From an uncultured Thermoleophilia bacterium (GTDB lineage Bacteria; Actinomycetota; Thermoleophilia; UBA2241), in assembly GCA_963705085.1 (NCBI GenBank), contig CAVPIV010000004.1:794193-858192 (forward strand): DNA of 64,000 nt. The letters run 5' to 3'. The translations under genes were made by a program, and so were the position numbers. Under the pieces are notes generated by a model. The model ran no database searches and was not told where the DNA came from. It saw nothing but the letters and a program-made list of their open reading frames with translations. Shown here in pieces: positions 1,980 to 61,237 of the stretch; within the stretch, counting starts at the first letter, position 1; every line of letters begins with the position of its first letter.

Positions 1980-1983
1980 CCAC

Positions 1984-3756: not shown

Positions 3757-7214
<3,458 letters not shown>

Positions 7215-9243: not shown

Positions 9244-9380
9244 GTGTGGCGGCCGCCTCGCCGCCCGAGCTGACCCCCACTGTACCAGCTCGCACGCCCG
9301 GCGGGCAGGCTCGGGAAGCGCCGCGAGGTAGACAATCGCAACGGTTCGCCGCGCTCGCGCCCTGCCGCTAGACTGGCCCG

Positions 9381-17041: not shown

Positions 17042-18553
17042 ATGCACGATGCCTTGCCCGTCGGACGCATGAGCTTCCTCACGGAGTCCGACAAGGAGGC
17101 GATCTACGAGGCGTCCGTAGAGATCCTCTCCGATGTCGGCACGCTCGTCTCTCACGCCGAGGCGACGGCCGTGCTGACGACGGCGGGCTGCCGGGTGGGC
17201 GAGAACGGCCGTGTGCTCGTTCCGCGGCACGTCCTCGAGCGGGCGCGGGAGACAGCACCCGCGGTCGTCGACGTCTTCGACCGTAGCGGCGAGCCGGCCA
17301 TGACGCTCGGGGGCACTCGTACGTACTTCGGGACAGGCTCCGACCTCCTGAACGTCTACGACCTGGAGAGCGGCGAGCATCGCCCCAGCAGCCTCGACGA
17401 CGTGGCCCGTGCGGCGCGACTCGTCGATGGGCTCCCCAACCTCGACTTCGTGATGTCGTCGGCCTACCCGAACGACGTACGCCCCGGCCACTCGTGGCTG
17501 CTGGCGTTCGCGACCATGATGCGCAGCACCACCAAGCCGATCGTCGCCGTCGCCGACAGCGGGGCCGACCTCGGCGCCATCTGCGGCCTCGCCGCCGCGC
17601 TGAGGGGGGGCGGCGACGAGCTGCGCCGCGCACCCTACTTCATCGTGTACGACGAGCCGACGAGCCCGCTGCAGAACCCGGCCTCCAGCGTCGACAAGCT
17701 GCTCCTGTGCGCCGCGGCCGGCGTGCCGGTGTGCTACGTCCCTGCCATGATGGCCGGCGCCACCGCGCCGATCACCGTCGCCGGTCAGGTGGCTCTCGGG
17801 ACGGCGGAGTCGCTCTTTGGACTCGTCCTCCACCAGCTGTACCGGCCCGGGGCGCCGTTCATCTACGGGCACGGTCACCCGGTGCTCGACATGCAGTCCG
17901 CGCAGAGCACGTACAACTCGGTCGAGGGGTACCTCTGCGAGATGGCCATGGTGGAGATGGCAAAGTGGCTGGACCTGCCCAACTTCGGCAACGCCGGGAC
18001 CAGCGACGCGGAGCTCGTCGACGCGCAAGCCGGCATGGACATCATGATCGAGACGCTCCTGGTGATGCAGGGCGGCTCCAATCTCAACCACAATGCCGGC
18101 TACCTGGACTTCGGCCTCACCGGGTCGCTGGAGGGCATCGTCATCACCGACGAGGCCATTGCCTTGTGCCGCCGCCTGCTCCGCGGCATCCGCGTCGACC
18201 GGGAGACCCTGGCGGTCGACGTCGTCGCCGCCGTTGGCCCGGGCGGCCACTTCCTCGGCCAGCCGCACACGCGGAAGCACCTGCGTACCGAGCAGTGGCG
18301 ACCGACGATCCTGAATCGCGACGGCCGCGAGGCATGGGTGCGCCTCGGTCAGCCGGACCTGCGGGAACGGGCCCGGTTCAAAGCTCTCGAACTGCTCCGC
18401 GAGCACGCGCCGCAGCCGCTCACGCCGCCGGTCGCCGAGTCGATCGACCGCCTGCTGGCCCGCTCCCTCGAGGAGTTGGGCGGCGACACGGAGCCCGCTC
18501 CCCTCTCGCCGAGCGTCACGGCAGTGTCATCACCACCGACAGCCCATGAATAG
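17042..18553 (+). CDS. MttB-superfamily methyltransferase (trimethylamine / glycine-betaine-type corrinoid methyltransferase), no in-frame amber
   Basis: 503 aa TIM-barrel MttB family similarity (VGENGRVLVPRHVLERA...YFGTGSDLLNVYDLE...ITDEAIALCRRLLRGIRVD); SD AGGAGG; uninterrupted ORF ending in TAG. Confidence 0.85.
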   Translation: MHDALPVGRMSFLTESDKEAIYEASVEILSDVGTLVSHAEATAVLTTAGCRVGENGRVLVPRHVLERARETAPAVVDVFDRSGEPAMTLGGTRTYFGTGSDLLNVYDLESGEHRPSSLDDVARAARLVDGLPNLDFVMSSAYPNDVRPGHSWLLAFATMMRSTTKPIVAVADSGADLGAICGLAAALRGGGDELRRAPYFIVYDEPTSPLQNPASSVDKLLLCAAAGVPVCYVPAMMAGATAPITVAGQVALGTAESLFGLVLHQLYRPGAPFIYGHGHPVLDMQSAQSTYNSVEGYLCEMAMVEMAKWLDLPNFGNAGTSDAELVDAQAGMDIMIETLLVMQGGSNLNHNAGYLDFGLTGSLEGIVITDEAIALCRRLLRGIRVDRETLAVDVVAAVGPGGHFLGQPHTRKHLRTEQWRPTILNRDGREAWVRLGQPDLRERARFKALELLREHAPQPLTPPVAESIDRLLARSLEELGGDTEPAPLSPSVTAVSSPPTAHE

Positions 18554-18715
18554 GCTCTCCCGCGCTCGCCCCCGTGCGGCCAGGCTCGAGCACACGCGCC
18601 ACTACCTGCTCCTCAAGAACACGGCCAAGAGGCTGGCGCCCGCCCTCGTCAAGCTGCCGCGGCCCGTCGACGACACCGACACATCGAGCATGTGCAGCGG
18701 AGATCGCCTACGTCA

Positions 18716-45738: not shown

Positions 45739-46992
45739 ATGCTCGACGTCAAGATGCTGCGCGCGAACCCGGACGCGGTCCGCAGGGCACTCGAACGCCG
45801 CGGCGCGTCGACCGTCCTCCTCGATGACTTCCTCGCGCTCGAAGCACAGCGTCGCAGGCTCCTGACCGAGGTCGAGACGATGCGCGCCGACCGCAAGCGA
45901 GCGAGCGACGAGATCGCGAGCGTCAAGAAGGCCGGTGGCGACGCCGCCCAGGCGATCGCCGGCATGCGCGCCCTCGGCGACACGATCAAGGAGCGGGAGA
46001 CTGAGCTCGGCGATGTCGACGAGCGCTTGCGCGCCATGGTGCTGGAGCTCCCGAACCTGGTCCTCGACGACGTCCCGAACGGCCGCGATCCGGCGGTGCT
46101 GCGCCACGTCGGACAACCGCCGGCGTTCGACTTCGAGCCCCTCGACCACCTCGACCTCGGGGTCGCCCTCGACGTCATCGACATGGAGCGCGCGGCCAAG
46201 GTCAGCGGATCGCGCTTCGCCTACCTCAAGGGCGACCTCGTGCTGCTCCAGTTCGCCCTCACCGGCTACGCTCTGGACATCATCTGCGGCCAGGGCTTCC
46301 GCCCGGTCGTGCCCCCGGTGCTCGTACGCGAGGAGGCCATGTACGGCACGGGCTTCTTCCCCACCGACCGTGCCCAGGTCTACGAGACCCTCGACGGCGA
46401 CTGCCTCGCCGGCACCAGCGAGGTCCCTTTGGCCGCCATGCACATGGAGGAGTACCTCGAGGCGGCCGACCTCCCGCTGCGCTATGCCGGCTACTCGACC
46501 TGCTTCCGCCGCGAGGCGGGCGCTGCGGGCCGCGACACGCGCGGCATCCTGCGCGTCCACCAGTTCGACAAGGTTGAGATGTTCAGCTTCTGCCTGCCCG
46601 AACAGGCCGCCGCCGAGCACCAGCGCATCCTCGCCACAGAAGAGACCATTCTGCGGGGACTCGGCATCCCGTACCGGGTCGTCAACATCGCCGCCGGCGA
46701 CCTCGGTGCTCCGGCGGCCCAGAAGTTCGACTGCGAGGCCTGGCTGCCTGGCCAGCGGCAATACCGCGAGGTGACGAGCTGCTCCAACTGCACCGACTAC
46801 CAGGCCCGGCGGCTCAACTGCCGCTTCCGCACCGACAAGGGCCCACGGTTCGTGCACACGCTCAACGGCACCGGCGTCGCCGTCGGCCGGACGCTGATCG
46901 CCATCATGGAGAACTACCAGATGGCCAACGGCACGATCGCCGTGCCCGACGTGCTGCGCGCGCGCATGGGCAAGGACGTGATCGGCGGCTGA
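45739..46992 (+). CDS. serS: Seryl-tRNA synthetase
   Basis: N-terminal coiled-coil arm, class II motifs (FRREAGAAGRDTRGILRVHQFDKVE, GTGVAVGR); SD GGAGGA. Confidence 0.9.
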   Translation: MLDVKMLRANPDAVRRALERRGASTVLLDDFLALEAQRRRLLTEVETMRADRKRASDEIASVKKAGGDAAQAIAGMRALGDTIKERETELGDVDERLRAMVLELPNLVLDDVPNGRDPAVLRHVGQPPAFDFEPLDHLDLGVALDVIDMERAAKVSGSRFAYLKGDLVLLQFALTGYALDIICGQGFRPVVPPVLVREEAMYGTGFFPTDRAQVYETLDGDCLAGTSEVPLAAMHMEEYLEAADLPLRYAGYSTCFRREAGAAGRDTRGILRVHQFDKVEMFSFCLPEQAAAEHQRILATEETILRGLGIPYRVVNIAAGDLGAPAAQKFDCEAWLPGQRQYREVTSCSNCTDYQARRLNCRFRTDKGPRFVHTLNGTGVAVGRTLIAIMENYQMANGTIAVPDVLRARMGKDVIGG

Positions 46993-47055
46993 GGGCGGCC
47001 TCCGCCGTCCTTCCTTTCGGGGCGGCAGCGGGACCCGCCGCCGGCCGCTCCAGGC

Positions 47056-47466
47056 TCAGTCCACGAGCTCGGCCGGCCCAAACCCGGGACCGCGGCCGTT
47101 CTCCCGCCAGGGGATGAGGTAGGAACGCACCTCAACGCCGGGGCACTCGTTCTCGAGCAGCGTCCTCGCCCGGCGCAGATCGCGCTCCAGCAGCTCCTGC
47201 TGATCGAAGCCGAACCCGCCGAGGACCCGCTCGTAGGCTCCGCACTCCTGGTGCGACACGAGATGGATCGTCCGTAGCCCTTGCGTCTCGAGGTGGACGC
47301 GCACGGCGTCGAGGGCGAAGCGCCGCTCCCCGCCGGAGCGCGTGAAGAGCAGGGGGCCGCCGGGGATGAGAATGCGGTCCGCGTCCGGCACGCCGAGCCA
47401 CGCCTGCAGCGTGCTGAGAGGGCCGGCGATCCGGCCGTCCGAGCAGGCGATGACGAGCGTCTTCAT
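47056..47466 (-). CDS. Small beta-carbonic-anhydrase-like protein
   Basis: CSDGR and HQECG motifs spaced as in beta-CA zinc ligands; only 136 aa. Confidence 0.45.
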   Translation of the reverse strand: MKTLVIACSDGRIAGPLSTLQAWLGVPDADRILIPGGPLLFTRSGGERRFALDAVRVHLETQGLRTIHLVSHQECGAYERVLGGFGFDQQELLERDLRRARTLLENECPGVEVRSYLIPWRENGRGPGFGPAELVD

Positions 47467-47946
47467 CGCGGGGGGCCGTGCGAGAGTTCGTGCACCGCGG
47501 ACCACCTGTCTGCGCTCACCCAACTACCCTTGGCCGTCGCAGAAGGCGAGAGAGCGTCCCCTGGATCCGAGACGGCCCTGAGCACCCTGCGGCGTGAAGC
47601 TGTTGTCGACCGCTTGACAGGAAAGATGAGCCCCAAGCGATACAGGTCGGGTGGCGGAGCGGCAGACGACGGCACCTGTCCTCGGCATCGACGTGGTCGG
47701 CGTCGACGTGCGGGACCCGGACATGATGCCGCCACCACGGCGATCCGGGCGCCGCGCGGTGACGACAGGTACGTCGGCGGCCGCCTTACGGGCATGGCGC
47801 CGGTTTGCCCGAGCAAGCGCGCCCACGCCAGGGTGGAGCTACGGCCACCTTGTGCCGGCGACAGGGCGCTCCGATAATGGGAAGCGCTCAGCCACCGGAT
47901 GCCGTTTCCACCACGGCCGCCCCGGACCACTCCAAGAGGCCCCTCG

Positions 47947-49032
47947 ATGAACACAGCACGACGAGATCCTGTGCGGAGGCTCTGTCAGCGAATCCTGGAC
48001 GGTCACGCCCCGGACGAGATGGAGCTGTGCGGGCTGCTCGAAGCAGGCGGTCGGGACAGGGAGACGATCTGCGAGGCCGCCAGACAGATGCGAGCACGCA
48101 CGTCCGGAGATGTCGTCTTCCTCTATGGGTTCGTCTACTTCTCGACGTACTGTCGCAACCGCTGCGCCTTCTGCCTCTATCGCGCGAGCAACCCGCTCAG
48201 CCCTCGCTATCGCAAGACGCAGGACGAAGTGCTGGAGGCATGTCGTGCTCTGGCGACGTCCGGCGTCGTCCTCCTCGACCTCACGATGGGCGAGGACCCT
48301 GCCATTCACGACGATCCGGAGTACCGCTCTCTCCTGGATCTGGTCGCCGCCGTGGCCGATGAAACGAACCTTCCGCTCATGATCTCGCCGGGTCTCGTGC
48401 CGGGCGCGGTGCTCGGCGCCCTGCGAGAGCGGGGCGCCACGTGGTACGCCCTGTACCAGGAGGCGCACGACGGGGAGCTTTACGCTCGTCTCCGTCCCGG
48501 ACAGCCCTTCCCGGCGCGCGCCGCCGCGCGCAGCGCGGCCCGGCGCGCCGGCCTCCTCGTCGAGGACGGAATCATGACGGGAATCGGCGATACCCCTCGC
48601 GACAGGGCGCGCTCGATCGTGGACATGCGAGCCGCCGACTGGGAGCAGATTCGGGTCATGAGCTTCGTTCCGCAACAGGGGACGCCGCTCGCGACGGTCT
48701 CTTCGCCGTCCGACGACGCCGAGTTGCTCACGATCGCGGCGATGCGCCTGGCCATGCCGGACCGCCTCATCCCGGCGTCCCTCGACGTGGCCGGCATCGA
48801 CGGTCTGGAGCCGCGACTGAACGCCGGGGCCAACGTGGTGACGTCCATCGTACCTCCCCACAGCGGGTTTCTCGGCGTCTCGCAGGCCGATCTCGGCGTC
48901 GACGAGGGGCAGCGCACGGTCGCGAGCGTCGTGTCGCGGCTCGAGGCGCTCGGGCTGCGCGCCGGTTCGGTCGACCAGTACCGTGAGCGCCTGACGGCGC
49001 TGTCGGCCCAGACCGCGGCGGTCGTGGCATGA
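47947..49032 (+). CDS. pylB: Radical-SAM 3-methylornithine synthase PylB homologue
   Basis: FVYFSTYCRNRCAFCLY CxxxCxxC, LDLTMGEDP, LPLMISPGL, RLIPASLDVAGIDGLEPRLNAGANVVTSIVPP. Near-collinear with archaeal PylB. SD AAGAGG. Confidence 0.85.
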   Translation: MNTARRDPVRRLCQRILDGHAPDEMELCGLLEAGGRDRETICEAARQMRARTSGDVVFLYGFVYFSTYCRNRCAFCLYRASNPLSPRYRKTQDEVLEACRALATSGVVLLDLTMGEDPAIHDDPEYRSLLDLVAAVADETNLPLMISPGLVPGAVLGALRERGATWYALYQEAHDGELYARLRPGQPFPARAAARSAARRAGLLVEDGIMTGIGDTPRDRARSIVDMRAADWEQIRVMSFVPQQGTPLATVSSPSDDAELLTIAAMRLAMPDRLIPASLDVAGIDGLEPRLNAGANVVTSIVPPHSGFLGVSQADLGVDEGQRTVASVVSRLEALGLRAGSVDQYRERLTALSAQTAAVVA

Positions 49033-49164
49033 GACACCGTTGTTCGTGACCGCGCGGACGCCGGAGGGCGCCCGAGTGCGAGCCGCAAGCGCGCGTGTCG
49101 CTTCCACGGAGCGCCGCGAGCTTCGGCCGCACGAGATCACCAGCCGGGACCGGCGGCGTCCCAC

Positions 49165-49980
49165 GTGACCCGCCTCACCCCCAGAGACACTCACGATCTC
49201 GTGGCCCGGGTTCACCGCCTCGACCGCACGCTGCTCGACGCCTGCGGCCTCGACTTGCTGGCGCTCGCCGCCCGAGCCGCGGGACGGGCCCCCGCCCATG
49301 TGAACGAGCGCCTCGCCGGCGCGCGCGTCGCAGCCATCCCGATGACTGCCGGCCAAGGTGTGATTCCGGGCTTCAGCCAGGGCGTGGCGGGCGTGCTGCG
49401 TCATCTCACCTGCACGGCCTGGGTCACGGACGCCGTCGACGTGTCGGGCGTCGACGAGGCCGTCAACGCCGGAGCGACCGTCGTCTTCCTCGCCGACGAC
49501 AGTCGTTTCATCGCCCTGAACATCGTCGAAGGACGATGCGTCAACAACGATACTTGCACAGCGGACGGCTACGTCGCAGCGCTGGCGGCGGCCGCAGGGG
49601 ACCTCCGGAACCGCTCGGTCCTCCTGCTTGGGCTGGGGCCGATCGGGCGCGCCGCGGCGCGCCGCCTGCTCGAGCACGGCGCGCGCGTCTGGGTGGCCGA
49701 ACCGGATCCGGAACGACTGCGCGCCGGACTCGACGACTACCCCGCGCTGCGGCCGGCCACGATCCAGGACGGGCTCGGCCGCTGCAAACTCATCCTCGAC
49801 GCCACACCGGCGCGAGGTCTCGTGGGCGCGGCCGACGTGGACCACGACACGATCGCGGCCGTGCCGGGCCTGCCGTCGGGCTTCACCGCAGAGGCCCAGG
49901 CAAAGCTCGGCGCCCGCCACATTCACGACCCGCTGGCCGTCGGCGTGGCTGTCATGGCCGTCCGCTCGCTCGTCCGGTGA
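49165..49980 (+). CDS. pylD: PylD homologue (3-methylornithyl-N6-lysine dehydrogenase)
   Basis: IPMTAGQGVIPGF, VTDAVDVSGVDEAVNAGATVVFLADDSRFIALNIVEGRCVNNDTCT, DATPARGL..VPGLP..EAQAKL..DPLAVG collinear with PylD; GTG start. Confidence 0.8.
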   Translation: MTRLTPRDTHDLVARVHRLDRTLLDACGLDLLALAARAAGRAPAHVNERLAGARVAAIPMTAGQGVIPGFSQGVAGVLRHLTCTAWVTDAVDVSGVDEAVNAGATVVFLADDSRFIALNIVEGRCVNNDTCTADGYVAALAAAAGDLRNRSVLLLGLGPIGRAAARRLLEHGARVWVAEPDPERLRAGLDDYPALRPATIQDGLGRCKLILDATPARGLVGAADVDHDTIAAVPGLPSGFTAEAQAKLGARHIHDPLAVGVAVMAVRSLVR

Positions 49981-50097
49981 TCACCGCGCGGTGATGGTCG
50001 CGCCGATCGCTCAGGGAACCTCACGATGCACGCCCGGGCACGGCGCTCGTCACGCCATCTAGGCCGCGCCGGCGCCCGTTGCTACACTGCAGCCAGA

Positions 50098-50187
50098 GGA
50101 GGGGTGGCAGAGTGGCTCATTGCACCGGTCTTGAAAACCGGCAACGGCGAGAGCCGTTCGTGGGTTCGAATCCCACCCCCTCCGCCA
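50098..50187 (+). tRNA. tRNA-Ser (anticodon UGA), type II
   Basis: GGAGGGG acceptor, anticodon loop CUUGAAA, long variable arm, GGUUCGAAUCC, CCA encoded. Confidence 0.9.
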
Positions 50188-50396
50188 GCCGTCTTCACCC
50201 GCGGAGCAGCCGGATCCAGCCGTGAGCGGCGAGCGGCGGCTGACGCTCCGCGAATGGTCCCTGCCCCACCTTCTTTGCTGGTATCCTACGGTTCCGGTAG
50301 AGTAGGTAAGCACTACTCTCGTGCGCAAAAACCACCGAACCCTCGGCGACGATACGGGCATTCTCGGATTCGCCGGGAGGACACAGGGAGTCGTCG

Positions 50397-50717
50397 ATGG
50401 AAGAACTGACCCTCGCCGTCCCGGGCATGTGGGCGGACCACCACGTGATCACCGTGCGCGAACTCCTGCGCGACGCGGGCATCTCGTCGATCGTCGCAAG
50501 CGCCCGCGACGCGTCCGTCCGCCTCACGTACGATCCGTCTCTGACGAGCCCGGCGCAGATCGCGGCCCTCCTCAAGGACGGCGGCTACCCCGCTGGAGAA
50601 GCCGAGAAGCCGGCGGCGTCGCCCACGAACAAGCCCGCCTGGGCGACGGCCGGTGTGCGCGTCACCGCCACCAACTCGATTGACCTGATCATGTCCGGGG
50701 ACCACCGGAAGTACTGA
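50397..50717 (+). CDS. Cysteine-less HMA-fold protein (GMWADHH replaces GMxCxxC); candidate Ni/metal chaperone for CODH
   Basis: TLAVPGMWADHHVITVRELLRDAGISSIVASARDASVRLTYDP..IAALLKDGGYPA aligns to the HMA ferredoxin-like fold; 120 nt upstream of cooS. Confidence 0.5.
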   Translation: MEELTLAVPGMWADHHVITVRELLRDAGISSIVASARDASVRLTYDPSLTSPAQIAALLKDGGYPAGEAEKPAASPTNKPAWATAGVRVTATNSIDLIMSGDHRKY

Positions 50718-50839
50718 TGCCACCCCAGACTGCCCAGCGCACACCCCGATCACACTGCCGCTGCCACCCAAGGAGCGGAGACCGACACTGCCGCGCCATC
50801 CTCCGCCTGCACCTGGGCCGCGGCCGAAGGAGCTGACCA

Positions 50840-52921
50840 ATGGACGACGAGAAGAGCGAGGAAGTCAAAGCCGGAGGCGCGAAGAGCATCGACCCGGCTG
50901 CCCTCGAGATGCTGCGCCACGCCGACGAGTGTGGCGTCGACACCGTGTTCCATCGTGCTGATCACATGAAGCCCTGCCCCATCGGCCAGGACGGCGCCTG
51001 CTGCCGCATCTGTTCGATGGGGCCCTGCCGCCTCGTCGGCAAGGACGCCGAGAACAAGGTGGGCCTTTGCGGCGCGGACCTGCCGACCGTGGCGTCCCGC
51101 CACTTCGCCCGGCAGGTCGCCGGCGGCGTCTCGGCCCACTCCGACCACGGCCGCGACATGGCCATGACCCTGCACGCCGTGGCCACCGGCCAGGCGCCGG
51201 GTTACAAGATCAAGGACGAGCAGAAGCTCACGGCCGTGGCTGGCTACATGGGCATCCCTACGGCCGGCCGTGAGGTCAACGACATCGCCCTCGACGTGTC
51301 CCTCAAGGCGCTCGAGCAGTTCGGCCAGCCGTTCGGCGAGATCATCTACACCAAGCGTGCGACGCCGAAGCGCCAGGCGCTCTGGAAGAAGCTCAACCTG
51401 ACGCCGCGAGCGATCGATCGCGAGGTCGCTGAGGTAATGCACCGCACCCACGAGGGCGTCGACCTCGACGCCGAGAACATCCTCAAGAGTTCCCTGCGCT
51501 GTTCGCTCGCGGACGGCTGGGGCGGCGCCATGCTGAGCACCGACATCAGCGACATCCTCTTCGGGACGCCTTCCCCCCTCTCCAGCGAGGTCAACCTCGG
51601 CGTCCTCAAGGCCGATCAGGTCAACGTCGTGGTGCACGGCCACGAGCCCACCCTCTCGGCGATGCTCGTCGAGGCGGCCCGCGACCCGGAGCTCATCGCG
51701 GAGGCCAAAGCCGAGGGCGCCGAGGGCATCAACCTCGCGGGCATCTGCTGCACCAGCAACGAGATCCTGATGCGCTACGGCATCCCGCCGGCGGGCAACT
51801 TCCTCCACCAGGAGCTGGCCGTCCTCACCGGCGCCGTCGAGGCCATGGTCGTCGACGTCCAGTGCATCATGCAGGCCCTTGGCCCGCTCTCGCAGCGCTT
51901 CCACACGCAGCTCATCACGACGTCGCCGAAGGCCAAGATCCCGCACGCCGTGCACGTCGAGTTCGACGAGCACCGCGCCCCCGAGACCGCGGCCGAGATC
52001 ATCCGCATGGCGATCGCCAACTACAAGAACCGCGGCCCGATCCACATCCCCGACTACCACGAGCCGCTGATCGCCGGGTTCAGCCACGAGTACCTCAACT
52101 ACATGCAGGGCGGCTTCCACCGTGGCTCGTTCCGGCCGCTCAACGACGCCATCATCGCCGGCCGCATCCGCGGGCTGGCAGGCGTCGTCGGCTGCAACAA
52201 CGCCCGGGTGACGCAGGACGAGGGCATCGTCACGATGATCAAGGAGTTCATCGCCCGCGACGTCATGGTCGTCGTCACCGGCTGCGCCGCGACGGCCGGC
52301 GCCAAGGCCGGCTTCCTCAGCCCGGAGATCCTCGACGCCGCCGGCCCCGGCCTGCGCGAGGTCATGGAGGCGATCGGCATCCCGCCGGTGCTCCACCTCG
52401 GCTCGTGCGTCGACAACTCCCGCATCCTCACGGTGCTCACCCAGGTGGCCACCGAGGGCGGCCTCGGCGAGGACATCGACGACCTCCCGGCCGTCGGCCT
52501 CTGCCCGGAGTGGATGTGCGAGAAGGCCATCGCCATCGGCACCTACTTCGCCGCCTCCGGCGCGCACGTGATCTTCGGCGTGAGCAGCCCGGTCAAGGCC
52601 TCGAGCGTCGCCACGCGCCTCATGACCGAGGGCTGGGAGGAGCTCGTCGGCGGCGATCTCGAGTTCATCCCCGACTGGGGCGAGATGCTGGCGCGCTCGC
52701 TCGAGCTGATCGACGGCAAGCGCGCTGCTCTCAAGCTCAAGCCCTACGACCCTTCGCAGTACGGCGACAGCGGCGACTCGCCCTACTTCGACGCCATCCG
52801 CGAGTACCTCGCCGAGCGCGTCGAGGTCGAGACCGTGGGTTCGGGCATCTACCCCCTGGCCGAGGGCCACTCGCACGGCCACGACCATGACCACTCGCAC
52901 GACGAGGGAGAGGACAGATGA
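50840..52921 (+). CDS. cooS: Ni-dependent carbon monoxide dehydrogenase catalytic subunit (CooS/AcsA) with His-rich C-terminal tail
   Basis: CPIGQDGACCRICSMGPCRL..LCGA B/D-cluster motifs, C-cluster ligands, tail HSHGHDHDHSHDEGEDR; SD AAGGAG. Confidence 0.9.
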   Translation: MDDEKSEEVKAGGAKSIDPAALEMLRHADECGVDTVFHRADHMKPCPIGQDGACCRICSMGPCRLVGKDAENKVGLCGADLPTVASRHFARQVAGGVSAHSDHGRDMAMTLHAVATGQAPGYKIKDEQKLTAVAGYMGIPTAGREVNDIALDVSLKALEQFGQPFGEIIYTKRATPKRQALWKKLNLTPRAIDREVAEVMHRTHEGVDLDAENILKSSLRCSLADGWGGAMLSTDISDILFGTPSPLSSEVNLGVLKADQVNVVVHGHEPTLSAMLVEAARDPELIAEAKAEGAEGINLAGICCTSNEILMRYGIPPAGNFLHQELAVLTGAVEAMVVDVQCIMQALGPLSQRFHTQLITTSPKAKIPHAVHVEFDEHRAPETAAEIIRMAIANYKNRGPIHIPDYHEPLIAGFSHEYLNYMQGGFHRGSFRPLNDAIIAGRIRGLAGVVGCNNARVTQDEGIVTMIKEFIARDVMVVVTGCAATAGAKAGFLSPEILDAAGPGLREVMEAIGIPPVLHLGSCVDNSRILTVLTQVATEGGLGEDIDDLPAVGLCPEWMCEKAIAIGTYFAASGAHVIFGVSSPVKASSVATRLMTEGWEELVGGDLEFIPDWGEMLARSLELIDGKRAALKLKPYDPSQYGDSGDSPYFDAIREYLAERVEVETVGSGIYPLAEGHSHGHDHDHSHDEGEDR

Positions 52922-55206
52922 GCCGCTACATCGCCAAGCGCGCCATCCGCGGCGCCACCGCCCTCGTCGCCGAAGCCGAGAAGCTGGTCGCGGAGGCCAT
53001 CGAGGAACTCGGACCGGAGACCCCGGTGCAGTTCACGAATACCGCCTACTTCCTGCCCGTCATCTACGCATTCACGGGCAAGAAGGTCGAGACGCTGGGC
53101 GACCTGCCGCCCGTCCTCGCTCGCTGCAGGTCCCTCCTCCATCCGCTGCCCGCCGACACGATGTGGCTGCCCTATCTCGGCGAGACGCTCGACAGCGGGG
53201 TCGCCACCCTGTTCGCGGAGGAGGTCATCGAGGGCGTGCGCTTCGCCCGCAAGCAGGAGCCGCAGATCATCAAGTTCGACGGCGACGGCGATCACGGCGA
53301 CACGCACTTCTCAGCCGGTACCCTCGGCGTTCACATGGGCAAGATGAAGCTCAACGGCCCCATCGACGACGTCCAGCTCCGCGCCTGGGGCATCCAGCTG
53401 GTCGACGGCCGCATGCCCGGGTTCTGCGCCATCGTCGGCTGCGCCAAGAGCAACGAGGTCGCGGTCAAGATCGTCCGCGAGCTGCAGAGCCGCGGCATCC
53501 TCATCTTCCTCAGCGGCAACGTCAACGGGCGCAGCATCATCCACCAGTTGCAGGAGGAGGGCATCCAGCTCGGCTACGACACGTTCACGGTGCCCTTCGG
53601 CATCGACACGATCTCAGCCGTCTACGCCCTGGGCTTCGCCGCTCGCTCAGCGCTCACCTTCGGCGGCATGGACGCCGGCAACGCCCGCGACATCATGCTC
53701 TACAACAAGTTCCGGGTGTTCGCCTTCGTCCTCGCCCTGGGTGAGGTCGACGACCTCAAGTACGCGACCGCGGCCGGCGCTATCAGCTACGGCTTCCCGG
53801 TGATCGCGGACACCCGCATCCCGCAGATCCTCCCCACCGGCGTCACGACCTACGAGCATGTCGTGAGCATGCCGTTCGACGAGATTCCGGGCGCGGACGA
53901 CATGGAGCGCGCCGAGAAGCTCATCCAGCGCTGCATCGAGGTGCGCGGCGTCAAGGTCAAGATCACCAAGGTGCCGATCCCCGTCTCGTACGGATCGGCC
54001 TTCGAGGGCGAGCGCATCCGCAAGGAGATCATGTACGCCGAGTTCGGGGGCAAGCGCAGCAGGGCCTTCGAGTTCCTGCGCAGCAAGCCCTCGGACGAAG
54101 TCGAGGACGGCAAGATCACGGTCGTCGGCAAGGATTTCGGCGATGTCGAGGAGGGCGCCGCCCTGCCGCTCGGCATCGTCGTCGACGTCTCCGGCCGCAA
54201 GATGCAGGACGACTTCGAGCCGATCGTGGAGCGCCAGTTCCACTATTTCATCAACGGCATCGAGGGTGTCCAGCACAACGGCCAGCGCGACATCACCTGG
54301 ATCCGCGTCGGCAAGACCACCATCGCCAAGGGCTTCAAGCTCGAGCACTTCGGCAAGGTGCTCCACGCGCGCATTCACGAGGTCTTCGGCAACATCATCG
54401 ACAAGGTGCAGGTGCACCTCACGACCGTGCCCGAGGACGTCGGCACGCTCATCGAGGAGGCGCGCGAGGCGTACCGGCAGCGCAACGAGCGCATCGCCAA
54501 CCTCACCGACGAGTCGGTCGACACCTTCTACTCGTGCCTGCTCTGCCAGAGCTTCGCGCCCAACCACGTCTGCGTGGTCAACCCCGAGCGCGTGGGGCTC
54601 TGTGGCGCCTACAACTGGCTCGACTGCAAGGCGTCCTTCGAGATCAACCCGACCGGCCCCAACCAGCCCGTCCCCAAGGGCATCTGCATCGACCCGGTCA
54701 GGGGCGAGTTCACCGGCCCCAACGAGTATATCTACGCGCACTCCAACCAGACGGTCGACCGCGTGACGTTCTACTCGATCATGGAAGCGCCGATGACCTC
54801 CTGCGGCTGCTTCGAGTGCATCATGGTGCTCGTGCCCGAGGCCAACGGCTTCATGATCGTCAGCCGCGAAGACCCCAGCATGACCCCGTGCGGCATGACC
54901 TTCTCGACGCTGGCCGGCACCGCCGGCGGCGGCATGCAGACGCCGGGGATGATGGGCTTCGGCAAGTACTATCTCACCAGCGAGAAGTTCATCTCCGGCG
55001 ACGGCGGCATGCCGCGCATCGTCTGGATGAGCTCCTTCCTCAAGGAGAGCATGCGCCCCGAGCTCGAGGAGATCTGCGAGAGCGCCGGCTGCCCCGGCCT
55101 CCTCGACATGATCGCCGACGAGACGATCTGCACGAGCGTCGACGAGCTCCTCCCCTTCCTTGAAGAGAAGGGGCACCCCGCCCTCACCATGGATCCCCTC
55201 TTCTGA
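52918..55206 (+). CDS. acsB: Acetyl-CoA synthase (A-cluster subunit, AcsB/CdhC)
   Basis: A-cluster motifs CGCFECI, SCG..C; full-length ACS similarity; ATGA overlap with cooS. Confidence 0.9.
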   Translation: MSRYIAKRAIRGATALVAEAEKLVAEAIEELGPETPVQFTNTAYFLPVIYAFTGKKVETLGDLPPVLARCRSLLHPLPADTMWLPYLGETLDSGVATLFAEEVIEGVRFARKQEPQIIKFDGDGDHGDTHFSAGTLGVHMGKMKLNGPIDDVQLRAWGIQLVDGRMPGFCAIVGCAKSNEVAVKIVRELQSRGILIFLSGNVNGRSIIHQLQEEGIQLGYDTFTVPFGIDTISAVYALGFAARSALTFGGMDAGNARDIMLYNKFRVFAFVLALGEVDDLKYATAAGAISYGFPVIADTRIPQILPTGVTTYEHVVSMPFDEIPGADDMERAEKLIQRCIEVRGVKVKITKVPIPVSYGSAFEGERIRKEIMYAEFGGKRSRAFEFLRSKPSDEVEDGKITVVGKDFGDVEEGAALPLGIVVDVSGRKMQDDFEPIVERQFHYFINGIEGVQHNGQRDITWIRVGKTTIAKGFKLEHFGKVLHARIHEVFGNIIDKVQVHLTTVPEDVGTLIEEAREAYRQRNERIANLTDESVDTFYSCLLCQSFAPNHVCVVNPERVGLCGAYNWLDCKASFEINPTGPNQPVPKGICIDPVRGEFTGPNEYIYAHSNQTVDRVTFYSIMEAPMTSCGCFECIMVLVPEANGFMIVSREDPSMTPCGMTFSTLAGTAGGGMQTPGMMGFGKYYLTSEKFISGDGGMPRIVWMSSFLKESMRPELEEICESAGCPGLLDMIADETICTSVDELLPFLEEKGHPALTMDPLF

Positions 55207-55228
55207 TCCGCGACCTGTTGGAGTGCTG

Positions 55229-56179
55229 ATGACTGCTGTGGAGACACCTCTCGAGAAATGGCCCGGCTCCGTGCGTGAGGTCACGCTGGGCGGCGGAGCC
55301 CGCACGTCCGTCACGGTCGGCGGGGAAACCACACTGCCGTTCCTCGGCTTCGAAGGTGCCATGCCGCACCGTCCCGCCCTGGCTCTGGAGATCGAGGACC
55401 GCCGGCCCGAGGGCTGGTCGTCCGAGCTGCTCGCGGCCCTGGGGGAGGTCGTCGACGATCCGGCCGCGTGGGCCAGGCACGGGGTGGAGCTCGGCGCCGA
55501 CCTGATCGCGCTCAAGCTCGACAGCTGTCATCCGGACCGCGGCGACAACGACGCCGCCTACGCCGTCGACCGGGTCAAGCAGGTGCTCGCAGCGGTCGAC
55601 GTGCCGCTCCTCGTGTACGGGCCCGGCACAGCCGAAAAGGACAACGAGGTGCTCGTCGCCGTCGCCGATGCGACCAAGGGCGAGCAGCTCGCCCTCGGGG
55701 TCTGCGAGGAGAAGAACTACCGAACGATCGTCGCCGCCGCCCTCGGCAACAACCACCTCGTCATCGGCGAAACGCCGATCGACGTCAACCTCGCGAAGCA
55801 GCTCAACATCCTCATCTCGGACATGGGTCTGCCACTCGAACGGGTGCTCATGGACCCGAACACGGGAGCGCTTGGCTACGGCCTCGAGTACACGTACTCG
55901 GTCATGGAGCGCCTCCGGCTGGCGGCGCTCATGGGCGACGCGATGACCCAGCAGCCGATGATCTGCCAGGTCGGCTCGGAGGCCTGGCGGCAGAAAGAGG
56001 CGCGGGCCGCCACCGACGTCCCGGAGGCCTGGGGCGACCTCGCGACGCGCGGCGTGGCGTGGGAGATCGCGACCGGCATGACCCTGCTCGAGGCCGGAGC
56101 CGACATCCTGCTCCTCCGTCACCCCGATTCCCTGAGCGCTCTTGGCGCAGCGCTGGACGACCTCGTGAAAGGGGCCTGA
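55229..56179 (+). CDS. acsD: Corrinoid iron-sulfur protein small subunit (AcsD/CdhD)
   Basis: TIM-barrel CdhD similarity; SD GGAG. Confidence 0.85.
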   Translation: MTAVETPLEKWPGSVREVTLGGGARTSVTVGGETTLPFLGFEGAMPHRPALALEIEDRRPEGWSSELLAALGEVVDDPAAWARHGVELGADLIALKLDSCHPDRGDNDAAYAVDRVKQVLAAVDVPLLVYGPGTAEKDNEVLVAVADATKGEQLALGVCEEKNYRTIVAAALGNNHLVIGETPIDVNLAKQLNILISDMGLPLERVLMDPNTGALGYGLEYTYSVMERLRLAALMGDAMTQQPMICQVGSEAWRQKEARAATDVPEAWGDLATRGVAWEIATGMTLLEAGADILLLRHPDSLSALGAALDDLVKGA

Positions 56180-56181
56180 CC

Positions 56182-57531
56182 GTGGCTCTCACCGGACTGC
56201 AGATCTACAAGCTCCTGCCCCAGACGAACTGCAAGGAGTGCGGCTTCCCCACCTGCCTCGCCTTCGCCATGAAGCTCGCCCAGAAGGGCACTGAGCTCGA
56301 CAAGTGCCCGCACGTGAGCGACGAAGCCAAGTCGGCCCTGGACGCCGCCTCGGCGCCGCCGATCAAGCTGGTCGCCGTCGGCGCCGGCGAGCGCGCCTTC
56401 GAGATCGGCAACGAGGTCGTCCTCTTCCGTCACGAGAAGACCTTCTACCACCAGCCCGGCATCGTCGTCCGCGTCGCCAGCGACGATCCGGCGCTGGCCG
56501 AGAAGGCCGCTGCCGTCGCCGGCTACGAGATCGAGCGCGTCGGCATGAAGCTGCGACTCGACGGCCTCGCCGTCCAGCAGGCGGGCGACGCGGCCGCGTT
56601 CGCCGCGGCCGTGGCCGCGGCCCGCGCGGCCGCCCCGGGCCTTCCGCTGGTCCTCGAGAGCGGCGACGCCGCGGCCGTCGATGCTGCCCTGTCGGCCGGA
56701 GCCGCCGTCGAGAAGCCGCTCATCCACGGCGCCACGGCCGCCACCTGCGACGCCATGACCGCGGTGGCCAAGAAGCACGGCTGCCCGCTCGTCATCTGCG
56801 CCGAGGGCGGCGATCTCGGCGCCCTCGTCGATCTCTCCGACAAGGCGCGCGCGGCGGGCGTCGAGGACCTGATCCTCGACGCCGGCGCCGTGTCGCTGGC
56901 CGGCGATCTCGCAGCCCTCACGCAACTGCGCCGCCTGGCGCTCAAGAAGGGGGCCCGCGCGCTCGGCTTCCCGATCCTCGCCGACGCCGGCGCGCCCACG
57001 TGGCAGGCAGAGCTCATTCGCGCCGATCAGGCGATCGCCAAGTACGCGGGGGTCGTCGTCCTGGACCACATGGAGCCGGGCGAGATCTACGCGCTGCTGA
57101 CCCTGCGGCAGAGCATCTACACCGATCCGCAGAAGCCGATCCAGGTCGACCCGAAGCTCTACGAGGTCGGCACCCCCGGCCCCGACAGTCCGCTGCTGAT
57201 CACCACCAACTTCTCCCTCACGTACTTCTCCGTCTCCGGTGAGGTGGAGGGCTCGCGCGTACCGAGCTGGCTGCTGGTGGCGGACTGCGACGGCCAGTCG
57301 GTGCTGACGGCCTGGGCGGCCGGCAAGCTCGACGCCGAGAAGATCGCCAAGACCGTCAAAGCCTCCGGCATCGGCGACAGGCTCACCCACAAGAAGCTCG
57401 TGATCCCCGGCCACGTCGCCGGGCTCTCCGGCGAGGTCGAGGAAGAGCTGCCGGGCTGGCAGATCATGGTCGGCCCCCGCGACGCCGTCGACATCCCGAA
57501 CTACCTCAAGACCGTCTGGGTCGCGGCCTAG
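56182..57531 (+). CDS. acsC: Corrinoid iron-sulfur protein large subunit (AcsC/CdhE)
   Basis: N-terminal 4Fe-4S CKECGFPTCLAFAMKL..CPH motif, C-terminal B12-binding domain; GTG start. Confidence 0.85.
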   Translation: MALTGLQIYKLLPQTNCKECGFPTCLAFAMKLAQKGTELDKCPHVSDEAKSALDAASAPPIKLVAVGAGERAFEIGNEVVLFRHEKTFYHQPGIVVRVASDDPALAEKAAAVAGYEIERVGMKLRLDGLAVQQAGDAAAFAAAVAAARAAAPGLPLVLESGDAAAVDAALSAGAAVEKPLIHGATAATCDAMTAVAKKHGCPLVICAEGGDLGALVDLSDKARAAGVEDLILDAGAVSLAGDLAALTQLRRLALKKGARALGFPILADAGAPTWQAELIRADQAIAKYAGVVVLDHMEPGEIYALLTLRQSIYTDPQKPIQVDPKLYEVGTPGPDSPLLITTNFSLTYFSVSGEVEGSRVPSWLLVADCDGQSVLTAWAAGKLDAEKIAKTVKASGIGDRLTHKKLVIPGHVAGLSGEVEEELPGWQIMVGPRDAVDIPNYLKTVWVAA

Positions 57532-57536
57532 TCTCG

Positions 57537-59504
57537 ATGAGTGACTCGCCCGTGACGACGAGCACGACCGTGATGGCCACGGTCACGTTCTCGCCCTCCG
57601 GCGAGTCGATCGAGGTGCCGGTCGGCACCAGTCTGCTGGACGCCGCGATCCTCTGCGATCTCGACCTCCCCGCCCCCTGCGCCGGTCAGGGCCGATGCGG
57701 CCGCTGCCGCGTGCGCATCATGGGCGGGGAGGTCCAGCGCCGCAGCAACGCGGGTCTCGAGGTCGGCGAGATCGCCGAGGGCTGGGCGGTCGGCTGCAGT
57801 ACCTACGTGACCGGCCCAGTCGAGGTGGAGATACCGCCCCGACGGCGCGAGCGCGTACGACCGCACGGGCACGCGGTGGCTCAGCCGGAAGCTCTCCCGG
57901 CGACCTGTGACTGGCGACGCAACCCGTCCATTCGGAGCTTCTCGCTCGAGCTCGATCCTCCGTCGCTCGCCGACAACACGAGCGACCTCGACCGGCTCCA
58001 GCGCGAGCTGACGCGCCAGTTCGGTTTTGCCGGGCTACGGGCGGAGCTGCCCATCCTCCGGGAGCTCGGCCACGTCCTTCGGGCAGGGGACTGGAAGGTC
58101 CGCGTCACCCTCGAAATGAACGACTGGGCGCACGGGACGACGCTCCCGCCGCGCCTCGTCGACGTGCGGCCGATGCGGGAGATGCCGAGCGACTACGGCC
58201 TCGCCGTGGACGTCGGCACGACCAGCGTCGTCGCGTACCTGGTCGACTTCTCAACGGCGCGCATCGTCGATACCGCCAGCGCCTACAACAAGCAGATCTC
58301 GTGCGGCGAGGACGTCATCTCGCGGATCATCTACGCTCGCCGCCCCGGCGGTCTCGAGCAGCTCGAGACACTGGTCCTCTCGACCATCAACTTCCTCATC
58401 GGACTTCTCGTGGAGCGCAATCACATCACCCCGCGCGACATCCACGAGGTCGCCATCGCCGGCAATACGACCATGACGCACCTGCTCCTCGGCATCGATC
58501 CCCGCTATCTGCGCGAAGAGCCGTACATCCCCACCGTCGCGCAAGCGCCGCGTCTCCTGGCCGAGGATCTCAAGCTGGGTGTCAACGGACTGGCCCGGGT
58601 GCGTTGTCTCCCCGCCGTCGGGAGCTACGTGGGCGGCGACATCACGGCCGGAGTGATCTCCTCAGGGCTGTACGCAACCGAGAAGCTCTCCTTGTTCATC
58701 GACATCGGGACTAACGGCGAGATGGTCCTCGGCAACAAGGACTGGCTCCTCTCCTGCGCGTGTTCCGCCGGCCCCGCCTTCGAAGGCGGCGGCGTGAAGC
58801 ACGGCATGCGCGCCAGCGAGGGCGCCATCGAGGACGTCTACATCGACGATGAGTTCGAACCTTCGTACCGCACCATCGACGACGCTCCGCCCATCGGCAT
58901 CTGCGGGAGCGGGCTCATCGATCTCCTCGGCGAGCTGTTCCTCACAGGGCTCCTCGACAAGTCCGGCCACCTCAACCGGCATGCAAAGACGGATCGCGTT
59001 CGCGTGAGCGACGCCGTGTGCGAGTACGTTGTCGCCCGGGCGGGCGAGAACGACGCGACGCAGGACGTGGTCATCAACGAGACGGATATCGCCTCCCTCC
59101 TGCGCGCCAAGGCGGCGATCTACGCCGGCTACGAGGTCCTCTGCCGGAGTGTCGGCGTCGACCTGGCCGACGTGGAGCAGATCCTCATCGGCGGAGCGTT
59201 CGGCCAGTACATCAACGTCGAGAAGGCGATCCGGATCGGTCTGCTCCCTGATCTGCCCGTGGAGCACTTCCACTTCCTCGGCAACACGAGCGCGCAGGGC
59301 GCCTACGCCACCCTGCTCTGCGCGAACGTGCGCGGCGACGTCCGCGACGTCGCCGCCAAGATGACCTACCTCGAGCTGAGCGCCGACAACACCTTCATGG
59401 ATGAGTACACGTCGGCGCTGTTCCTGCCCCACACGGACCTCGATGCGTTTCCCAGTGTGCGGGGCGCCCTCGCCGCCCGCGGCATCGGAGTGGCCGGCGA
59501 ATGA
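57537..59504 (+). CDS. Reductive activase of corrinoid enzymes (RACo; 2Fe-2S ferredoxin plus ASKHA ATPase)
   Basis: N-terminal plant-type ferredoxin Cys motif (CAGQGRCGRCRV), ASKHA/DUF4445 domain. Confidence 0.8.
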   Translation: MSDSPVTTSTTVMATVTFSPSGESIEVPVGTSLLDAAILCDLDLPAPCAGQGRCGRCRVRIMGGEVQRRSNAGLEVGEIAEGWAVGCSTYVTGPVEVEIPPRRRERVRPHGHAVAQPEALPATCDWRRNPSIRSFSLELDPPSLADNTSDLDRLQRELTRQFGFAGLRAELPILRELGHVLRAGDWKVRVTLEMNDWAHGTTLPPRLVDVRPMREMPSDYGLAVDVGTTSVVAYLVDFSTARIVDTASAYNKQISCGEDVISRIIYARRPGGLEQLETLVLSTINFLIGLLVERNHITPRDIHEVAIAGNTTMTHLLLGIDPRYLREEPYIPTVAQAPRLLAEDLKLGVNGLARVRCLPAVGSYVGGDITAGVISSGLYATEKLSLFIDIGTNGEMVLGNKDWLLSCACSAGPAFEGGGVKHGMRASEGAIEDVYIDDEFEPSYRTIDDAPPIGICGSGLIDLLGELFLTGLLDKSGHLNRHAKTDRVRVSDAVCEYVVARAGENDATQDVVINETDIASLLRAKAAIYAGYEVLCRSVGVDLADVEQILIGGAFGQYINVEKAIRIGLLPDLPVEHFHFLGNTSAQGAYATLLCANVRGDVRDVAAKMTYLELSADNTFMDEYTSALFLPHTDLDAFPSVRGALAARGIGVAGE

Positions 59505-59532
59505 CGGACACCGCTGCGGGAAGGTTGACGAC

Positions 59533-60333
59533 ATGACCATGACCATCGCCGTGGCCGGCAAGGGCGGCACCGGGAAGACGACGCTCGCCGGCCTCATCAT
59601 CCGTCGCCTCGTCGAGGCCCAGGCGAGCCCGATTCTCGCCATCGACGCCGACCCGGCCAGCAACCTGAACACGGTGCTCGGTCTCCCCCTCGAGAAGACC
59701 GTCGGCGACGTCCGCGAGGAGACGAGCGAAAAGGCGCGGGCCAATCTCCTGGAGGCGGGCATCGCCAAGCGCGACCTGCTCGACTACGAGATCAACTCGA
59801 GCGTCGTCGAGGGCGTGGGCGTCGATCTGCTGGCCATGGGCCGGCCCGAAGGCCCAGGCTGCTACTGCGCCGCCAACAACATGCTGCGGGCGATCGTCGA
59901 CACCATTGCCGACGGCTACCCGTGGGTCGTGATTGACAATGAAGCCGGCCTCGAGCACCTCTCGCGGCGGACGACCCGCGATGTCGACGTGCTCTTCATC
60001 GTGAGTGACGCGACCGTGCGCGGCATCATCACGGCCGGCCGCGTGCGCGCCATCCTCGACGAGCTCCAGACCCGCGTGGGCCAGCATTACCTGATCGTCA
60101 ATCGCGCCGCCGAAGGGCTGACTCCGGAGATCGAGAGCGCCATCGCCGAGCAGCGCCTGGAACTGCTGGCGGTGCTCCCCAGCGATCCCCTTGTCGCAGC
60201 GCTCGACGCGAGCGGCCGGCCCATCAGCGAGCTCCCCGAAGACAGTCCCCTCAAGACTGCGTTCGCCAAAGTCCTCGACAGGCTCCCCATTGACGCTCTC
60301 GGCAAGGAGGCCGCACGTGCTGATCATCGGTGA
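59533..60333 (+). CDS. cooC: CooC/AcsF nickel-insertion ATPase
   Basis: P-loop GKGGTGKTT, MinD/ParA-like fold with CxC (GCYCAAN). Confidence 0.85.
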   Translation: MTMTIAVAGKGGTGKTTLAGLIIRRLVEAQASPILAIDADPASNLNTVLGLPLEKTVGDVREETSEKARANLLEAGIAKRDLLDYEINSSVVEGVGVDLLAMGRPEGPGCYCAANNMLRAIVDTIADGYPWVVIDNEAGLEHLSRRTTRDVDVLFIVSDATVRGIITAGRVRAILDELQTRVGQHYLIVNRAAEGLTPEIESAIAEQRLELLAVLPSDPLVAALDASGRPISELPEDSPLKTAFAKVLDRLPIDALGKEAARADHR

Positions 60334-61237
60334 GAATATCCATATCATCGCCCCGCCCGTCAAGCAGGCCATTGAGACTCGCGACGCCAAGTTCATCCAG
60401 GACCTGGCCGTGCGGCAGGTTGAGGCCGGCGCCGGCGTCGTCGACCTCAACATCGGGCCGCAGAAGAAGCTCGGCCACGAGGTGATGCCGTGGATCGTGC
60501 AGGCCGTGCAGGAGGTCGTGGACGTCCCGCTGTCGCTCGACACCACCAACCTCGCGGCGATGCGGGCCGGCCTCGAGGTCTGCAAGCTGCCGGCCGTGAT
60601 CAACTCCGCCTCCGCTGATCCCGAGCGGCTCGACAGCGTCATGCAGCTCGCCGCCGAGTTCGGCGCCAAGGTGATCGCGCTCACGATGGGCGTCGACGGC
60701 ATCCCGACGACGGCCGACGGTCGCGCCGGCATCGCCATGGAAGCTCTGCTCCCCGCCGCCGAGGCCGCCGGCATCCCGATGCCGGACGTCTTCCTGGACC
60801 CGCTGGTCCTCACCGTGACCTGCAACCAGGACGTCGCCGAGGCGGCCGTCGACGCCATCCGCATCTTCAAGCAGCTCTCCGACCCGGCGCCGACCACCGT
60901 CGTCGGTCTGTCCAACGTCTCCAACGGCTGCCCGTCGGAGTTCCGCCCGCTCATCAACCGCACGTATCTGGTGACGCTGATGGGCGCCGGCCTCGACGCG
61001 GCGATCGCCGACCCGCTGGACGAGAAACAGAACGAGTTCATCCGCATCGTCGAGCAGCGGGACGAGAGCACGCCGCTCGGCAAGCTCGTCGTGGCGCTCT
61101 ACGACGCCAGCGCGGCCATGGAGGACCTCGACCCTGCCCTGATCGACCATGACGACCCCGACCAGGTCGACATCTTCAAGACTTACCGCATGCTGCGGAA
61201 TCAGGTCATCTACGCGGACTCGTATCTGCGTATCTGA
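60317..61237 (+). CDS. acsE: Methyltetrahydrofolate:corrinoid/iron-sulfur protein methyltransferase (AcsE)
   Basis: Pterin-binding MeTr domain (IIGENIH, LSLDTTN, GLSNVSNG); SD AAGGAGG 6 nt before GTG. Confidence 0.85.
   Translation: MLIIGENIHIIAPPVKQAIETRDAKFIQDLAVRQVEAGAGVVDLNIGPQKKLGHEVMPWIVQAVQEVVDVPLSLDTTNLAAMRAGLEVCKLPAVINSASADPERLDSVMQLAAEFGAKVIALTMGVDGIPTTADGRAGIAMEALLPAAEAAGIPMPDVFLDPLVLTVTCNQDVAEAAVDAIRIFKQLSDPAPTTVVGLSNVSNGCPSEFRPLINRTYLVTLMGAGLDAAIADPLDEKQNEFIRIVEQRDESTPLGKLVVALYDASAAMEDLDPALIDHDDPDQVDIFKTYRMLRNQVIYADSYLRI

Follow-up and report, generated by a model that had tools for sequence, protein, structure and literature searches.

Pyrrolysine is made by the successive action of the mutase PylB, the ligase PylC and the dehydrogenase PylD, after which PylS and tRNA-Pyl take over; in solved PylD complexes the lysine part of the isopeptide is bound by the enzyme. 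In the classical pylTScBCDSn operon of Desulfitobacterium and Desulfosporosinus (L069, L075 and L078-L080; genomic loci and contigs are denoted here by L numbers), pylBCD comes after pylT and pylSc, and the locus has MttB-family genes at a distance of a few kb. Other arrangements have been published. In Ca. Methanomethylophilus alvus a distance of about 0.7 Mb separates pylB from pylTSCD; in M. luminyensis, additional copies of pylC/pylT occur in isolation (PMC3941956). Among Actinobacteria, a survey reports only two with PylRS (PMC9630628). The present analysis concerns a pylB-pylD pair in a 64-kb stretch of DNA (the window) from a soil actinobacterium of the class Thermoleophilia. An earlier reading of this DNA, the original prediction, had drawn attention to the pair on the premise that pylB, pylC and pylD are always contiguous and linked to pylS/pylT. 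That premise was wrong, because split pyl arrangements such as that of Ca. M. alvus had been published, and several loci surveyed here show pylC-pylD without pylB or other gene orders.

In the window, pylB and pylD are separated by exactly 132 nt (49033-49164), and this spacer very probably holds what is left of pylC: a deletion in situ of about 1.0-1.1 kb would have taken the gene from near its second codon up to a point some 44 codons short of the stop. The locus is like the pyl cassette of Thermoleophilia and Actinomycetota (L001, L016, L089) in gene order, in strand and in having NTGA overlaps where pylB ends and pylD begins. It differs in that pylC appears reduced to the 132-nt relic, no pylT follows pylD, and the flanks consist of serS, a carbonic anhydrase (CA)-like gene, tRNA-Ser and a carbon monoxide dehydrogenase/acetyl-CoA synthase (CODH/ACS) operon, whereas theirs consist of leuABCD and gatAB. 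The Methanomassiliicoccales resemble it insofar as they too do not keep all pyl biosynthesis genes together and have partial copies. Their full set is, however, documented and functional, whereas the window bears the probable scar of an in-place deletion and the remainder of the pyl genes was not found in its 64 kb. The enzymes of the classical operon are orthologous to those of the window, which in contrast to that operon has pylB and pylD only. Proteins of the classical-operon loci are 44-49% (PylB) and 38-42% (PylD) identical to those of L001, and their PylD is 34-38% identical to that of the window. Judged by their sequences, the PylB and PylD of the window appear to be ordinary members of their families.

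The identities originally proposed for both genes were borne out by curated NCBIfam models. PylB scored 414.9 bits against TIGR03910 (cut-off 348.2); with 101 bits for HydE and 70 bits for BioB, it is not closer to these non-Pyl radical S-adenosylmethionine (SAM) enzymes. It aligned with the solved M. barkeri PylB (3T7V) over residues 11-340 (E 9e-87), the CxxxCxxC radical-SAM motif YCRNRCAFC of the window matching YCKNQCSFC of 3T7V. Two ATG codons are present in the pylB open reading frame (ORF), at 47899 and 47947, the latter being the start used in relatives. PylD scored 217.1 bits against TIGR03911 (cut-off 150.05), contains the Pfam PylD_N domain (PF21455, 97.6 bits), matches the solved PylD 4J43 (E 7e-29) and keeps the invariant N-terminal T-R-L as well as the Rossmann motif GLGPIG (GxGxxG). 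Among columns with conservation of 97% or more, PylB shows no deviation in 86 and PylD shows 2 in 36, one of these two being an Asn that is also the M. barkeri residue; PylD of intact operons reaches up to 4 such deviations. Neither gene contains a frameshift. By these measures, pylB and pylD of the window are genuine and intact.

The closest relatives of the two proteins are those of L001 and L089 (PylB 70%, PylD 62-64% identical). A neighbour-joining tree of PylB and PylD with 100 bootstraps placed the window sister to L089, a canonical pylBCD operon. The dN/dS ratio (nonsynonymous to synonymous substitution rates) between the window and L001 was about 0.2-0.3, similar to that of pairs of intact operons, with dS near saturation. 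Accelerated evolution of PylB and PylD was also considered and dropped, as a relative-rate test gave no clear signal: identity to outgroups was below the mean by 1.8 standard deviations for PylB and by 0.6 for PylD.

Evidence for a pylC relic comes from both ends of the spacer. At its left end, the window reads ATGAGAC, exactly as L089 does at the start of pylC, where this string encodes Met-Arg; in 23 of 45 related operons the pylB stop and the pylC start share an NTGA overlap, with PylC beginning M/V-R. The ATG frame at the pylB stop of the window ends after 6 codons. At the right end the window shows the NTGA in which pylC stops and pylD starts in 39 of the 45 operons. A DNA profile of the region from the end of pylB to the start of pylD was built from 48 relatives. 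Using nhmmer, its first 229 positions aligned to the pylB 3' end of the window, about 1100 positions were missing, and window 49039-49370 then aligned to the last ~135 nt of pylC and the pylD 5' end. The translation of the relic frame begins ETPLFVTARTPEGARVRAAS, and the translated stretch ending at the TGA at 49166-49168 reads ETPLFVTARTPEGARVRAASARVASTERRELRPHEITSRDRRRPT.

This peptide matched positions 370-403 of the 413 positions of a Thermoleophilia PylC profile with 3.2 bits (E 0.0018, for a single comparison). Of 2000 shuffled peptides 3 scored as high (empirical p ~0.001-0.002), as did 5 of 4943 real stop-free 45-residue windows taken from the six frames, one of which belongs to a genuine ATP-grasp gene. 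Neither of the remaining spacer frames matched this profile. In a local alignment with the PylC of L089 the relic fell at residues 349-383 of 391, a score equalled by 21 of 2000 shuffles. With a general PylC profile that also included Firmicutes, Deltaproteobacteria and others the match was marginal (71 of 2000 shuffles as high), so that a clade-specific profile was needed. The spacer, described earlier as 132 nt of non-coding DNA, thus has the length given, while its description as non-coding does not hold if, as seems very probable, it is a pylC remnant. Together with the missing pylT, this favours a degraded or rearranged Pyl locus, one of the options raised at the outset.

Errors of assembly are probably present in the window, as indicated by dnaK (4261-6250, minus strand), which is split over three frames into N-terminal, middle and C-terminal parts; this points to indel errors and less to a pseudogene. 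A collapsed or chimeric contig might in principle also have removed pylC, but we regard this as highly improbable. A Logan short-read contig (L003, ERR11561443) spans 48525-50146, covering the pylB 3' end, the relic and pylD and reaching into tRNA-Ser, and its 1622 nt are 99.94% identical to the window with one substitution and no indel. As this contig is independent and matches the junction, the junction is not an assembly artefact of the window. Furthermore, both gene-overlap motifs are kept at the junction, which a random mis-join would not do.

Table 1. Features of the pyl locus, its flanks and the MttB-family gene (window coordinates).
Feature	Coordinates	Strand	Remarks
pylB (methylornithine synthase, radical SAM)	47947..49032	+	361 aa; alternative upstream ATG at 47899
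Probable pylC start remnant	49029..49033	+	ATG overlapping pylB stop (ATGA), then AG
Probable pylC 3' relic, ~44 codons	49034..49168	+	frame ending TGA 49166-49168, overlapping pylD GTG start (GTGA)
pylD (3-methylornithyl-N6-L-lysine dehydrogenase)	49165..49980	+	271 aa; GTG start
Lineage-specific segment (upstream region, pylB, relic, pylD)	47471..50097	.	blastn against L084, L086, L087
Carbonic-anhydrase-like gene (Pro_CA_2), conserved left flank	47056..47523	-	PF20393, E 5.6e-06, 27 bits, below the 30-bit gathering score
tRNA-Ser(UGA), conserved right flank	50098..50187	+	ARAGORN, Rfam; 118 nt after pylD, the place of pylT in relatives
Non-Pyl MttB-superfamily gene	17045..18553	+	PF06253 281 bits; TIGR02369 354.6 bits (cut-off 525); no internal stop

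For comparison, species-representative genomes were scanned by PylD alignment, which yielded 80 loci, 56 of them actinobacterial and mostly from Thermoleophilia metagenome-assembled genomes (MAGs). In nearly all of the 56, pylB, pylC and pylD are contiguous. A pylT gene follows pylD on the same strand in 54 of the 56, at a distance of no more than 250 nt in 42 of these, and encodes an almost invariant tRNA-Pyl of 73 nt. Where a locus extends far enough, pylSc is mostly found on the opposite strand, 2-9 kb downstream; a PylSn gene (TIGR03912, 119.6 bits) stands beside pylSc in L001 and L002. Complete cassettes, with pylB-pylC-pylD-pylT, pylSn and pylSc, were found in more than 50 species-level Thermoleophilia/Actinomycetota MAGs (L001, L002, L004-L056, L068 and L082), many of them from Danish soil (MFD) assemblies. 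None of the complete-cassette loci has an MttB-family gene within 10 kb; cytochrome c oxidase genes are found near the L002 cassette. Seven loci (L040, L043, L050, L135, L137, L165 and L166) carry pylC-pylD-pylT with no pylB within reach; they represent a second way in which actinobacterial pyl systems are split.

The missing pyl genes, their tRNA and their client genes were then sought in the window, to which these searches refer. Profile hidden Markov models (HMMs) of PylC and PylSc, built from 71 and 48 sequences, respectively, were run on the six-frame translation. No intact pylC (TIGR03909 ATP-grasp ligase) was detected by tblastn or by two PylC profiles, and no pylSc by tblastn or profile HMM, which returned only generic class II similarity to serS (E 0.01-0.25). 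Likewise, pylSn was not found, so that 48 kb upstream and 14 kb downstream of the locus are without pylSn/pylSc. Neither ARAGORN nor Rfam nor an nhmmer model of 19 distinct Thermoleophilia pylT sequences (best E 0.87) revealed a tRNA(CUA), and no pylT remnant was seen between pylD and tRNA-Ser or elsewhere in the window. The earlier statement that the pair lacks pylC between its genes and pylS or pylT in the window was thus confirmed.

A scan of methyltransferase genes for in-frame TAG, also proposed earlier, was carried out on the window. It contains no client gene (mttB, mtbB or mtmB) with an in-frame UAG; its only MttB-family gene is uninterrupted, as had been stated, and belongs to the non-Pyl MttB superfamily since its score lies below the cut-off for Pyl-type MttB. 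This gene, which had been called nearby, lies 30 kb from pylB and pylD, outside the pyl cassette. No TAG-terminated gene of the window showed a convincing coding continuation. The frequency of TAG stops was considered as an indicator of Pyl decoding and dropped: it is non-discriminating because TAG makes up 21% of stops in the cassette-bearing Thermoleophilia and 29% in the window. The corresponding shares were 22% in the syntenic relatives of the window and 33% in L031.

The genes around the cassette follow the order serS, CA-like gene (minus strand), pylB, relic, pylD, tRNA-Ser(UGA), a small HMA-like ORF and the CODH/ACS operon. The closest syntenic relatives, with AcsA 90-91% identical, are L084 (a 1.26-Mb contig), L086 and L087, which show gene-for-gene synteny with the window; their CA-like genes are 77-79% identical to that of the window, and the same tRNA-Ser(UGA) precedes their acs operon. 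In blastn comparisons with these three, window 46900-47470 and 50098-50898 aligned and nothing in between did. Since DNA similarity ends at 47470 and resumes at 50098, pylB, the relic and pylD are the lineage-specific content of a variable slot, which extends from the CA-like gene to tRNA-Ser (window 47524-50097; L084:8388-9270; L086:8395-9275; L088:4795-4941). L084, L086 and L087 have at this place a 237-aa hypothetical ORF without family match, the slot of L088 is nearly empty, and none of the four syntenic relatives carries pyl genes in it. The 420 nt upstream and 117 nt downstream of the cassette have no homologue in related loci, and around the cassette we found neither direct nor inverted flanking repeats, nor integrase genes, nor any promoter/terminator consensus.

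Our preferred reading, in which we place even confidence, is that the locus is a recently disabled remnant of a pyrrolysine cassette whose two surviving genes have not yet decayed. The ancestral state would have been a Thermoleophilia-type pylB-pylC-pylD-pylT cassette with pylSn and pylSc a few kb away. Deletion of pylC in place would then have left the ATGA start overlap, the 3' relic and the GTGA stop/start overlap with pylD. From its place in the pathway, the surviving PylB could still convert L-lysine to (3R)-3-methyl-D-ornithine; lacking the PylC ligase, the locus would provide no 3-methylornithyl-N6-lysine for PylD to oxidise, and lacking pylT and pylS it would not support UAG decoding. 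We infer that the locus alone cannot make or encode pyrrolysine. This reading is supported because the 64 kb gave no signal of pylC, pylS or pylT while the relatives mostly have pylT, pylSc and pylSn nearby, because L089, nearest in the PylB and PylD tree, has a canonical pylBCD, and because the slot of the four syntenic relatives holds no pyl genes and the window no amber methyltransferase gene.

Several points weigh against it. PylB and PylD show no sign of decay, which fits continued use as well as recent deletion. The relic match is short, with about 32 aligned residues at 3.2 bits, and we hold the deletion step to be very probable and not certain because of this. The examined part of the genome is 64 kb. 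Finally, L031 and L147, which form an independent clade, have kept pylB and pylD but no pylC, L031 next to an amber mttB, so that this arrangement can belong to a working system whose parts are dispersed.

L031 (CAVYCN01, MAG MFD04492.bin.3.7) and L147 (metagenome contig Ga0335069_10066823 from JGI) each carry intact pylB and pylD genes on one strand with no pylC in between, no pylT or pylS within reach (for L031, ±10 kb, where pylC is missing as well), and NTGA at the pylD start, all of which they have in common with the window. They differ from the window in belonging to a separate clade, which was recovered in 100 of 100 bootstraps and never grouped with it, and in having no pylC relic in their spacers; the window for its part has neither an amber mttB nor a gene like a trimethylamine N-oxide (TMAO) permease. 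Between the two loci, PylB and PylD each share 68% identity and dN/dS is about 0.2, and on this measure their pylB and pylD are evidently under purifying selection. The L031 spacer (9334-10003) contains a Cys-rich 80-aa ORF and an ORF resembling a DeoR helix-turn-helix protein, the stop of which overlaps the pylD start (GTGA). That of L147 (3529-3690, ~165 nt) contains no ORF and keeps ATGA at the pylD start. The gene order in L031 is amber mttB, corrinoid protein, two permeases, a second, non-Pyl MttB gene, pylB, two small ORFs and pylD, which places pylB/pylD directly downstream of a trimethylamine-utilisation locus. Its mttB (1606-3021, plus strand) has a single in-frame TAG at nt 2533 and scores 589.6 bits with TIGR02369 (cut-off 525), and a TMAO-permease-like gene lies upstream of the L147 pair. 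The L031 organism evidently needs pyrrolysine, and its pylC, pylS and pylT must therefore be elsewhere. Consequently, a pylB-pylD pair that lacks a neighbouring pylC can be part of a split system that works.

This arrangement keeps alive the same explanation for the window, namely that another part of the genome carries pylC, pylT, pylSc and pylSn, or a second complete cassette, and that the window pair supplies two of the three biosynthetic steps. We consider such a system possible but rather doubtful. Apart from L031/L147, it would agree with the full conservation of PylB and PylD, with the several loci in which pylC-pylD-pylT occur with no pylB nearby, and with the split and multi-copy arrangements of the Methanomassiliicoccales (PMC3941956). 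Yet in the window pylC appears to have been destroyed in place and not moved, and a split system must therefore assume another copy. In addition, the window lacks the pylT seen downstream of pylD in 54 of 56 relatives, the slot is free of pyl genes in its closest syntenic relatives, and the 64 kb contain no Pyl-dependent gene, the MttB homologue being of the non-Pyl type.

The intactness of both genes in two independent lineages without adjacent pylC would also agree with a use that has nothing to do with pyrrolysine, in which PylB and PylD were kept without PylC, pylS and pylT as a two-enzyme module for a pyrroline or isopeptide metabolite derived from 3-methylornithine, with an unrelated ligase or none. 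The arrangement would then have arisen twice, in the window and in the L031/L147 clade. The window does encode an unrelated, RimK-like ATP-grasp ligase in an ORF at 18550-19701 (plus strand), which overlaps the stop of the non-Pyl MttB gene. Considered as a substitute for PylC, this gene was rejected as evidence because it lies 30 kb away; its product showed no specific similarity to PylC in BLASTP and gave only weak RimK/LysX matches in NCBIfam. Moreover, no ligase or tailoring gene adjoins pylB and pylD, the window and L031/L147 share no change at conserved PylD positions, and the context of L031 is plainly one of Pyl-dependent trimethylamine use. The binding of the isopeptide's lysine part by PylD also speaks against such a use. 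The suggestion of new 3-methylornithine chemistry, made with the original prediction, found no positive evidence, and we judge it improbable. If it were nevertheless true, this would be the first Pyl-independent use of that chemistry. The literature searched contained nothing relevant on loci with pylB/pylD only or on 3-methylornithine natural products.

If, on the other hand, the locus is a disabled cassette, it offers a snapshot of the loss of the pyrrolysine trait, in which a single deletion precisely cut out the ligase gene while the flanking genes remained pristine, and hence a modest but clear piece of evidence on how a genetic-code expansion cassette turns over in bacteria. No pylC-deleted operon with a recognisable scar was found in the literature searched. 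The survey is also useful more widely, with complete cassettes in more than 50 Thermoleophilia genomes and one actinobacterial clade in which pylB and pylD stand apart from pylC. For annotation, the locus carries a warning: the presence of pylB and pylD alone does not mean that an organism reads UAG as pyrrolysine.

Regarding the host, the high-GC actinobacterial backbone noted earlier was confirmed. The guanine plus cytosine (GC) content of the window is about 69%, its genome is Thermoleophilia-like, and one AcsA match of 84% identity is labelled Thermoleophilia. Downstream of the HMA-like ORF, the plus strand of the window carries a Wood-Ljungdahl carbonyl-branch operon (50397-61237) comprising acsA, acsB, CdhD, the gamma subunit AcsC, RACo and a pterin-binding methyltransferase. 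This CODH/ACS operon is conserved in several large MAG contigs at 84-91% AcsA identity.

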